From assembly GCA_963851445.1 (NCBI GenBank), contig CAWKPH010000001.1, positions 489,363-553,362 on the forward strand: DNA of 64,000 nucleotides. Reading direction: 5' to 3'. How positions within the stretch are numbered: position 1 is the stretch's first letter; each line of letters begins with the position of its first letter. Source of the stretch: an uncultured bacterium. GTDB lineage: Bacteria > Patescibacteriota > Minisyncoccia > Phycocordibacterales > Phycocordibacteraceae. The position numbers were made by a program, and so were the translations under genes. The notes below the pieces were generated by a model that searched no databases, was not told the DNA's origin, and was given only the letters and a program-made list of their open reading frames with translations. Below are positions 55,766 through 62,900 of the stretch, in pieces.

Positions 55766-56441
55766 ATGGCTGCAATCCGATTCCATTTGGTGACGCTCTT
55801 TCAAGAGGCCTGTAAACCCTATTTAAGCGCTTCTATCGTAGGACGAGCTCAGAAGCAGAAATATATAAAGATTTTCTATCAGAACCCACGTGATTTTGTC
55901 ACCAATAGATGGGGAAAAGTCGACGAGCGTCCATATGGTGGTGGTCCGGGAATGGTTATGACTGCGCTACCCGTTGTCAAATCCGTGAAGAAGGCACTCA
56001 CTGCTAGGACAGATAAAAAGAAAATCGCCATTGTATGGTTTGTGCCTGGCTCAAAAGCGTTTACGAATAGCGACGCTGACAGGTTAGCAAAATTTAATGA
56101 CATCGTACTCGTGTGTGGACGATATGAAGGTATCGATGAACGCGCGTTGAAAATTTTTCAAGACCATGGGAATTGTAAAAACGTATTCCGTAGGAGAAGC
56201 CACTTTAACTGGTGGAGAAGTTCCTGCACTCGCGGTCATAGATGCCATAACACGCAGGCTCCCAGGAGTTCTCGGAAAGGACGCTTCAATCGAAGAGCGT
56301 CGCGTGGCTTCGCACGAGGTGTATACAAGACCCGAAACCATTGAATGGAAGGGCAAAAACTACAAAATACCGAAAGTTCTGCAAACCGGTCACCATGCGA
56401 ATATCAATTCCTGGCGCTCAAAACCAAGTCGCAAAGCATAA
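55766..56441 (+). CDS. trmD: tRNA (guanine37-N1)-methyltransferase, interrupted by one frameshift near 56165
   Basis: N-terminal 'IRFHLVTLFQEACKPYLSASIVGRAQ...NPRDF...VDERPYGGGPGMVM...LVCGRYEGIDERA' in frame 2; C-terminal 'GEATLTGGEVPALAVIDAITRRLPGVLGKDASIEE...YTRPE...VPKVLQTGHHANINSWR' in frame 3 (ORF 56166..56441). Confidence 0.8.
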
Positions 56442-56694
56442 CAAGAATTTATTCCACAGGCTCTGTTAAGGGTAGTTGACGGCAGACAGGGGTTCGCGTT
56501 ACTATAGGCATACGAGATTGAGTAACGAAGGGCGGTTACGTTATGTGCAGGCAATAAAAGCCGTGGGGAAGATTTAGGGCAGAAAACCAGTTGGAGAGTA
56601 CTTTTATCAGCGCCTCGGAAAACGAGTAGCGCCGCTCGTACGTATGTACGAGCCGTTCGACGTTTTATACCTTGGCTATCTTCATATAATCTAC

Positions 56695-59900: not shown

Positions 59901-59977
59901 TTTATCTATGGCTAACTTCACAAAAAAGACAGGTCCAAATACGGGCTACGGAAATCACCGACAAGGAGGGGATTGGA

Positions 59978-62900
59978 ATGCGCTTCGTCTCTCGCTTGCT
60001 TCGTCCTGAACGAATCCTTGAATGGTCTCGTGGCGAAATCACAAAACCAGAAACCATCAACTACCGCACCCAGCGCTCTGAAAAGCATGGGCTCTTCGAC
60101 GAAAAGATCTTCGGTCCAGAACGCGACTACGAATGTTACTGTGGCAAGTACAAGGGTATTCGCTATAAAGGAATCGTCTGCGATAAGTGTGGTGTCGAAA
60201 TCACACGCTCAATTGTTCGTCGCGAGCGCATGGGCCACATCGAGCTTGTCTCGCCAGTAGCGCACATCTGGTTCCTCCGCTCTATGCCATGCCGCATGGC
60301 GCTCCTCCTCGGGGTCTCCGCAGCTGACCTTGAGAAGGTCGTCTACTTCGCTGGTTACATCGTTACAAAAGTGCAGGAAGACACTAAGAAGCGTCTCCTC
60401 AACGAACTTGAAAGTGAATACAAGACAAAGCATAAGTCACTCGGGACTGATGCTGCAACGAGAAGCATTAAAAGAGCGTATGACTATCGCAAGTCAGGAA
60501 ATTGATAGCGTTGTCATTGGTAAGGTATTCGATGAAATTCAATACCATCGATTCTCAGTGAAATACGGCACACTCTTCGAAGCCCGAATCGGTGCAGAGG
60601 CTATTTATGATCTCTTCCGCAACCTCAAGATGGATGAACTTAAGAAAATGCTCGAAGAACGATATGCAGAACCGCTGGAGCTGCTGATCGCGAAAAGCTT
60701 GCGAAGCGTATCTCGCTCATCTCGAGCATGATCGCAGCCGAAGTTCGACCTGAATGGATGTTCCTCACGCGGATTCCGGTTATCCCACCAGCACTTCGTC
60801 CAATGGTTGCGCTTGAAGGCGGTCGCCATGCGACTTCCGACGTTAACGACCTTTATCGTCGTGTCATCAATCGCAACAATCGTTTGAAGAAGCTCATGGA
60901 CATCCATGCGCCGGAAGTGATTCTCCGCAATGAGAAGCGTATTCTCCAGGAGGCAGTCGATGCACTGATTGACAACTCGATTCGCAAAGCCGGAGCGAAT
61001 GCTGGTGCGCTTACGCCCGCACAACGCCGTCCATTAAAGTCTCTCGCTGATTACCTTAAGGGCAAGCAAGGGTACTTCCGCCAGAACCTTCTCGGGAAGC
61101 GCGTTGACTATTCGGGACGTTCCGTTATCGTCGTTGGTCCGGACCTCGAGCTCGACGAGTGTGGACTTCCAAAACACATGGCACTCGAGCTTTTCCGTCC
61201 GTTTGTTATTGCAGGTCTTCTTGATCGCGAACTCGCCTTCAATATTCGTGGTGCAGGTCGCTTAATTGAAGACGGTGTCCCAGAAGTGTGGGAGATTCTC
61301 GAAGAGGCAATCCAAGGCAAATACGTGCTCCTCAACCGCGCGCCGACACTTCACCGCCAGGGTATCCAGGCATTCCGTCCTCGACTCATCGAAGGTGATG
61401 CTATCCAGTTGCATCCGCTCGTTTGCCCTGCTTTTAATGCAGACTTCGACGGCGACCAAATGGCTATCCACGTCCCTCTCTCAGAAGAGGCACAGTGGGA
61501 GGCAAAGAATGTTATGAGTGCAAATAAGAATATCCTGAAACCGGGTTCAGGTGACATGATCGTGCTTACACAAAAGCCCCTCGATATTGTGCTCGGCACC
61601 TACTGGCTCACAAAGGCTATCGATGGTGCCAAGGGTGAAGGCCTTTACTTTGCCTCGCCAAATGCCGCTATGCTTGCACAGGAGTATGGTGCGATCGACA
61701 TGCGAGCAAAGGTCAACATTCTTCCACAGGCTGATAAACAGAAATACGCGCCATTTGAAGGCAAAATTTTCGAAACGACCGTCGGACGTCTCCGATTCAA
61801 TACCGTCCTTCCTGCAGATTATCCGTTCGTAAATGATGCTATCTCAAACAAAGTACTTTCCGGCATTATGAGCGATTGTATGGTTCGTTATGGACTCGAT
61901 GCCATCCCAAGCATCGTGAACAAGGTTAAAAAATTCGGTTTCGAATATGCGACTAAATCAGGCGTATCATGGAGCATTGATGATGTGTCCGTGCCTGAGG
62001 GCAAGGCAGCTATTGTTTCAGGCGCTCAAGAGAAAGTAAAGCGTATTCAAGATGATTATCGCGACGGACTCCTTTCAGAAGAAGAAAAACGACGCATGGT
62101 GATTGAGATCTGGCACGGCGCAAAAACTGAAGTCGAAAAACTCGTTGCTAATGCGCTCGACCCTATGGGATCGGTTGCTGACATGGTGCGCTCAGGTGCC
62201 CGTGGTTCGATCGGAAATCTCACACAGATGGCTGGTATGAAAGGGTTAATCCAAAATACTGCGGGAGAAACCATTGAAGTTCCTATCGTATCTTCGATGA
62301 CCGAAGGACTTAATCCTGTTGAATACTTTATGTCAACTCACGGGGCCCGTAAGGGTCTGACTGACACTGCCCTCGGCACCGCACGCGCTGGTTACCTTAC
62401 TCGTCGTCTCTTCGACGTTGCCCAGGACTCGATCATCACAGAAAAGGATTGTGGTACCAAGCGTGGCATTCAGATTAATCGTATTTCAGCTTCGGGTATT
62501 CAGATCGACTTCGCAAAAGCTGTACGCGGTCGCTCGCTCACGGCTGACATCGTCGATGCTTCCGGGGTACTTTTCAAAAAAGGTCACTATCTTTCTGCAG
62601 ACGATGCAAAGGTAATTAACGCATCTGATGGTGTGCAATCGGTGACAGTCCGTTCAGCAATGACATGTGAGACACGCTACGGTATCTGTCAGCTCTGTTA
62701 TGGCATGGATCTCACAACCCAGGAACTCGTTGATCTTGGCGAGGCAGTAGGAACTATCGCCGCACAGGCGATTGGTGAACCAGGAACACAGCTCACAATG
62801 CGTACCTTCCATGCGGGCGGTACCGCATCAGTGAGCGGCGACATCACACAAGGTCTTCCTCGTGTTGAAGAGGTCTTCGAGAAGCGTTCACCAAAGAATC

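Follow-up and report, generated by a model that had tools for sequence, protein, structure and literature searches.

In a 64-kb stretch of DNA (referred to here as the window) from a 687,765-bp contig of a Paceibacteria/Kaiserbacteria-like bacterium of the candidate phyla radiation (CPR), the genes trmD, rpoB, and rpoC are interrupted by 20 frame-changing insertions and deletions (indels). These lie between positions 56154 and 60670 and comprise 17 single-base insertions, one 2-base insertion, and two single-base deletions. The deposited sequence does contain these frameshifts, yet an assembly artefact is almost certainly their origin, and the deposited consensus from approximately 56154 to approximately 61456 almost certainly does not derive from one genome. 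Very probably, judging from the sequences, reads from related taxa mapped locally onto the conserved rpoB/rpoC core and contaminated the pile-up used in consensus calling or polishing. Directly observed are the indels and their confinement to one tract, the absence of decay, an in-frame alternative from the same run, GC-rich family-majority alleles, and alleles standing in tandem. The organism itself is expected to carry undamaged copies of trmD, rpoB, and rpoC.

The gene order at the locus is rnr (reverse strand), rpsP, a gene for a KH-domain protein, trmD, rpoB, and rpoC. The features relevant to the argument are listed below in window coordinates, with third-position G+C content abbreviated as GC3 and an independently assembled contig pair, L081 and L082, used as reference.

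42766–56157, unstranded: left flank, matched by Logan contig L081, with genes intact throughout.
55766–56441, forward strand: trmD (tRNA m1G37 methyltransferase), interrupted by a single extra base in AAAATTTTTCAAG at 56154–56159.
56695–59903, forward strand: rpoB, requiring 16 frame changes (14 of +1 and two of −1); the corrected product has approximately 1,060 residues and no stop codon.
56698–57636, forward strand: N-terminal third of rpoB, free of frameshifts, with a native-like GC3 of 0.43–0.52 and a low rank, 47 of 50, in agreement with the family majority.
57636–59459, forward strand: storm core, covering the conserved RpoB core, with 15 indels in 1.8 kb, GC3 of 0.48–0.71, and a sequence drawn to the family consensus.
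59532–61456, forward strand: tract in which the window overlaps L082 and disagrees with it, with approximately 113 substitutions plus extra bases in the window.
59866–59995, forward strand: island free of substitutions between the window and L082, comprising the RpoB C-terminal tail, the spacer, and the lineage-specific RpoC N-terminal tail.
59908–63664, forward strand: rpoC, with +1 at 60003–04, +1 at 60455–56, and +2 at 60667–70, and a single frame afterwards.
61457–64000, unstranded: right flank, near-identical to Logan contig L082, with a single mismatch at 61915.

Three approaches were used to place the events: a frameshift-aware dynamic-programming alignment of the intact RpoB, RpoC, and TrmD proteins of relatives to the window DNA; a nucleotide alignment with eight relatives; and, event by event, a local scan for the single base that must be taken out or put in to bring the protein closest to that of the family. 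The placement is protein-guided because the nearest species-level references (GTDB species representatives) share at best ~86% amino-acid and ~78% nucleotide identity with the window over rpoB. In all relatives examined (12 loci; 65 RpoB and 52 RpoC sequences), rpoB (~1,060–1,110 codons) and rpoC (~1,250 codons) are unbroken. A first-pass annotation of this DNA had described a localized storm of about 16 frameshifts across trmD, rpoB, and the 5′ end of rpoC. The coordinates it gave are correct; only the number was slightly low, with 20 frame-changing events now found.

The one event in trmD is a +1 in the T-run, where dropping any T, or the C that comes next, restores ERALKIFKTMGIVKTYSVG, as in the relatives. 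In rpoB, the +1 events lie near 57636, 58088, 58119–21, 58184–87, 58238–40, 58329–31, ~58538, 58612–14, 58671–72, 58957–62, 59054–56, 59387–89, 59457, and 59854–56; the two −1 events lie ahead of 57721 and ahead of 58481. The three rpoC events, two of +1 and one of +2, fall at 60003–04, 60455–56, and 60667–70. Besides these 20 events, the rpoB–rpoC spacer carries one additional base, an A at 59904. Most of the insertions are located outside homopolymers, with a single site in a run of at least five. On a reading of the sequence contexts, approximately half of the insertions can be described as a duplication of the neighboring base. Homopolymer compression or run-length error was considered as the sole cause and rejected, duplication of the adjacent base fitting only about half of the insertions.

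Outside the tract, no frameshift was found in the 64-kb window by tiling of open reading frames (ORFs), Pfam architectures, gene calls on L081, or alignment of rpoC. The ORFs tile the window densely, and pheT, gyrB, and other long genes show a full set of Pfam domains. On L081, smc, rnc, dnaE, thrS, and rnr are all intact, and the frameshift-aware alignment reads rpoC in a single frame from 60671 to 63661. This agrees with the earlier statement that the flanking long genes are undamaged. With 20 events in ~4.5 kb as opposed to none in ~59 kb, the localization is not due to chance.

Exact-protein look-ups place the organism in one public sequencing run only, ERR11630394, in which it is represented by two contigs of the Logan k-mer assembly. 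L081 matches window positions 42766–56157 with two mismatches and no gaps over 13,392 nt. The two mismatches, at 45414 and 45822, are both in the dnaE region and have G in the window as opposed to A in L081. L081 ends one base short of the first insertion site, at 56157, which is the fourth T of the run in which that insertion lies. L082 begins at window position 59532 and extends beyond 64000. Its sequence from 61457 on agrees with that of the window except for the mismatch at 61915. Between 59532 and 61456, the two differ by ~113 substitutions at a density of 5–11 per 100 nt, tapering from 60900 to 61456. The substitutions comprise 92 synonymous and 22 non-synonymous changes, which marks them as biological alleles and not random noise. 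The window also carries extra bases relative to L082 near 59856/59865, 59904, 60000–04, 60455, and 60667–68. All six of its extra-base events in 59532–60668 are absent from L082, such that L082 encodes an intact RpoB C-terminus with its stop codon and the first 335 residues of RpoC. Protein searches and exact look-ups yielded no contig bridging 56158–59531, only the two flanking Logan contigs. The zone of trouble thus coincides exactly with the part of the locus where the k-mer assembly either breaks or departs from the deposited contig. The breaks at 56157 and 59532 hint at the presence of several allele sets in the reads.

Upon removal of the indels, the reading frames contain no in-frame stop codons, and 949 of 1057 aligned residues of the corrected RpoB are identical to the RpoB of a low-GC relative (L001). 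Near-invariant columns were defined as those at least 97% invariant in the 65 RpoB and 52 RpoC relatives. In the storm core (57637–59459), the window deviates at two of 391 such columns, both of them in the ambiguous junction 58186–58201. Elsewhere, the deviations amount to none of 102 in the RpoB C-terminus, one of 149 in the 5′ part of rpoC, two of 132 in the clean N-terminus of rpoB, and one of 329 in the clean 3′ part of rpoC. Twenty indels with essentially no amino-acid damage are incompatible with a pseudogene, and the near-absence of such damage shows that the error process yields almost exclusively indels.

These observations bear on the proposal that the lesions are real, carried by a subpopulation genome with frameshifted trmD, rpoB, and rpoC, whether this is a very recent pseudogene accompanied by a second copy elsewhere or a defective lineage. 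The indels are present in the deposited sequence, and the second haplotype of the same run, L082, is itself frameshifted in rpoC, both of which such a proposal would accommodate. However, 20 indels with nearly zero damage at the 391 near-invariant residues do not resemble pseudogene decay. Moreover, tblastn finds only this locus and no second rpoB in the 64-kb window, the flanks are identical to an in-frame haplotype, and the allele pattern described below is consensus-like. The genes are essential and single-copy in a genome of ~0.69 Mb, and in place of a signature of relaxed selection, the differences between the window and L082 are predominantly synonymous. Real lesions are accordingly judged highly improbable. 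The first-pass annotation had already ascribed the storm to a poor consensus and not to pseudogenes; the lack of substitution damage and the in-frame independent assembly at the sites it covers bear this out.

Programmed recoding, in which ribosomal +1 frameshifting, transcriptional slippage, or RNA editing decodes the shifts, would account for the predominance of +1 among the events and for a corrected protein that is perfectly conserved. However, the contexts of the indel sites are heterogeneous and share no motif, no recoding motif was seen in them, and only one site lies in a run of five or more. The shift is absent from all 65 relatives, the insertions are absent from the in-frame haplotype of the same sample, and the shifts are limited to 4.5 kb and not distributed genome-wide. 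The likelihood of recoding is close to negligible. The storm is not a real genomic feature and is a member of neither the pseudogene nor the recoding category, because the relaxed selection expected of the one and the shared slippery motif and conserved shift expected of the other were looked for and were not found.

The composition of the tract differs from that of its surroundings. Across 57600–60320, GC3 is 0.55–0.71 in nine of ten 100-codon bins and 0.48 in the tenth, as compared with 0.42–0.53 in the rpoB N-terminus, the 3′ part of rpoC, and eight other long genes. In the relatives, the GC3 profiles are flat along both rpoB and rpoC. The wobble differences are strongly directional, with the window carrying G or C and L082 carrying A or T at 60 sites and the reverse at 13. 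Of 120 sites at which L082 and the window disagree, the window carries the allele most common among 51 relatives at 99, L082 carries it at 11, and neither does at 10; when real genomes are substituted for the window, the majority-allele share is 41–62%.

The same shift is evident in ranks of agreement with the family majority at variable sites. The window ranks 46–49 of 50 in the clean flanks but 41, 19, 40, and 35 of 50 in the four affected segments, whereas the rank of the real low-GC relative L001 is flat across segments. Like the native flanks, L082 comes out at the bottom, at 54 of 54. Nucleotide identity to the relatives is ~79–84% in the tract as compared with 75–77% in the flanks, the affected part of rpoB/rpoC thus matching the more conserved one. 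At the allele level, the tract spans ~56154–61456 and reaches past the last frameshift. The first-pass annotation had bounded the affected region at 55766–60731; the frameshifts are indeed contained there, whereas the disturbance of alleles extends to ~61456.

Within this tract, the two assemblies agree without a single substitution over the 130 nt of 59866–59995, where they differ only by the extra A at 59904, while the neighboring sequence is 7–10% divergent. The island spans the RpoB tail, the spacer, and ~30 lineage-specific residues extending the N-terminus of RpoC, and it is unalignable across species. An island devoid of substitutions in the least conserved stretch is the reverse of what real divergence produces. 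In the tract, the window looks like an L082-like native sequence in which approximately one-quarter of the sites differing from the relatives have been switched to the majority state. A block-wise mosaic was considered and rejected: the differences between the window and L082 are evenly spread, with a longest gap of 91 nt that is within the geometric expectation. This even spread points to mixing site by site and not in blocks.

The insertions themselves carry a related signature. Where L082 covers the window, three of four coding insertions are directly readable as the family-majority allele and the L082 allele side by side. At 60003/04, the window has TCG followed by T, where the family majority has TCG and the L082 codon ends in T. 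At 60455/56, the G of the majority (~90% of relatives) is followed in the window by C, the L082 base. At 59855/56, the window reads T and then C, the codon being ATT in L082 and ATC in the majority. Read from these alignments, the consensus appears at all three positions to have kept a native and a foreign allele in tandem. More generally, at 12 of 16 single-base insertions, the equally good deletions are the wobble base and the base next to it, which are different bases and give synonymous codons. Simulated random insertions into the same coding sequence give such wobble pairs at a rate of 0.45 (P = 0.018 for the observed count). Both −1 events remove exactly one wobble base.

The proposed mechanism is as follows. 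Native reads would have been piled up with reads of related Paceibacteria/Kaiserbacteria-like populations, the latter aligning solely over the conserved rpoB core and the 5′ part of rpoC. Foreign reads in agreement with one another would have outvoted the native allele, introducing GC-richer family-consensus alleles, mostly at wobble positions. At approximately 20 polymorphic sites, the caller would have kept both alleles (+1) or neither (−1), thereby breaking the frame. Such a both-or-neither outcome may be expected of a pile-up or partial-order consensus in which two allele sets have comparable weight.

A different account retains a single genome and supposes that the window carries a real variant haplotype of the rpoB–rpoC region, for example that of a recombinant strain, in a low-coverage or unpolished long-read patch where raw indel errors survived, either as a result of a few noisy reads or because short-read polishing passed over the region. 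Errors that are nearly all indels with hardly any substitutions are indeed typical of a long-read consensus, and related long-read contigs in ENA illustrate what such errors look like. The k-mer assembly of the same run is also broken over 56158–59531, and L082 too carries an indel at the locus. What this account does not accommodate is the identity of the alleles. A real divergent haplotype would be expected to show 38–59% private alleles among its differences, whereas the window shows 17%, and the haplotype would have to lie 7% from L082 while all real relatives are more than 20% away. The least conserved 130 nt have no substitutions, contrary to what real divergence gives; the majority of insertions do not extend a homopolymer, insertions outnumber deletions by 18:2, native and majority alleles stand in tandem, and the alleles of the tract are non-native. 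A single-haplotype patch is, on balance, unlikely. Among the three causes proposed in the first-pass annotation (low coverage, strain mixture, or an unpolished long-read patch), strain mixture is favoured by the shifted and tandem alleles, whereas a noisy, unpolished patch of native sequence fits less well, since insertions lie mostly outside homopolymers, substitution errors are all but lacking, and the alleles are non-native.

Several points weigh against the mixing of reads from related taxa. We infer both the mixing and the responsible software step, whether consensus calling or polishing, from sequences alone. No pure foreign donor was identified: no relative is specifically closer to the window in the storm, and many are at 81–84% identity, which fits several contributors and not one. 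The enrichment of wobble pairs at the insertions is only modestly significant. Fifteen of the indels fall in 56158–59531, outside the coverage of the independent assembly. The L081 break at 56157 is located ~1.5 kb upstream of the conserved core, and the left boundary of the tract is thus not explained by conservation alone. In addition, L082 has a 1-nt deletion of its own (L082:1370–1385, window position 60913) in the universal RpoC motif APEV, which splits its rpoC into 335 and 915 residues; neither assembly is clean at the rpoB–rpoC locus. Together, the L081 break, the missing bridge, and the L082 deletion suggest extra strain-level heterogeneity or noisy reads at this locus and give the single-haplotype patch some room.

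It is extremely improbable that some real subpopulation carries the indels in its DNA, as might a lineage whose rpoB–rpoC core was patched by recombination with several relatives. Were this the case, the RNA polymerase locus would be frameshifted and either non-functional or recoded, and survival would rely on a second copy, on recoding, or on dependence upon a host or partner.

Other features of the window are unrelated to the storm. The ribosomal protein S16 encoded at 54836–55318, upstream of trmD, has a C-terminal extension of ~70 residues rich in proline, alanine, and glutamate. At 56–4337, a ResIII-type helicase is encoded beside a UvrD-like helicase, and in the 3–6 kb region, spanning the distal UvrD-like gene and the DNA beyond it, G+C content falls to ~0.43–0.44; the helicase pair and the low-G+C region may represent a mobile or defence-related island. 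At 39140–42386, two adjacent ORFs of 351 and 737 codons have no Pfam match and a G+C content of 0.52–0.57 relative to a background of ~0.47. A 1,044-codon ORF at 19794–22928 has PG_binding_1 as its sole recognized domain, and lies where the GC skew is strongly negative (−0.27 and −0.18) and the G+C content is 0.51–0.53. The tRNA-Thr(TGT) at 30207–30282 is the window's sole tRNA, and nothing else in the 64 kb matches Rfam at the gathering threshold.

The storm has no biological significance, as the genes are almost certainly intact in the organism. It is instructive as a case of data quality, in which a near-complete and otherwise very clean CPR contig carries a corrupted copy of its most widely used single-copy phylogenetic marker, with alleles of neighbouring taxa blended in at precisely the conserved part. 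Naive annotation misses rpoB here, and completeness estimates fall. Frame correction of the rpoB of record would still leave foreign alleles in place, and the gene would be pulled to the family consensus in trees and identity comparisons; because its alleles are blended, it is unfit for phylogeny even in its frame-corrected form. The combination of a local GC3 rise, family-majority alleles, and insertions that offer two alternative wobble bases may serve as a signature for flagging such tracts without recourse to reads.

Bacterial pseudogenes and the rescue of frameshifted genes by transcriptional slippage are familiar from the reduced genomes of endosymbionts. The present case shares with them frameshifted essential genes and a small genome. 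In contrast to those systems, it has no long A/T tracts at the sites, substitution decay, or conserved shifts, and an in-frame version exists in the same sample.

Unpolished nanopore or continuous-long-read assemblies, with indel errors genome-wide, offer another likeness. Two related Paceibacteria contigs in ENA, L085 (ERZ1286166 contig_599, 61 kb) and L086 (ERZ1714337 contig_4455, 663 kb), have rpoB and rpoC chopped by single-base indels in the same manner. However, in these contigs every gene is cut into short ORFs, rnr, trmD, rpoB, and rpoC among them, whereas here the damage is restricted to one tract, lies mostly outside homopolymers, and is accompanied by an allele shift. The fragmentation of L085 and L086 over their whole length explains the many short RpoB matches found on long contigs. 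A recurrent rpoB-specific phenomenon, which such short fragments on long contigs could have signified, was rejected, these two being ordinary unpolished assemblies.

The nearest known counterpart is the collapse of related strains or species into one consensus, which is documented for the long-read metagenome assemblers Flye and Canu, together with indel-caused frameshifts and lost marker genes in long-read metagenome assembly (Strainberry; PMC8302730). Merged genomes and indel frameshifts are common to both, the outcome here being an allele mosaic set between clean flanks. Unusually, however, the collapse is limited here to the ~5-kb conserved rpoB/rpoC core of an otherwise clean 688-kb contig, and the foreign contribution looks multi-species and not that of one sister strain, because the alleles are those of the family majority.

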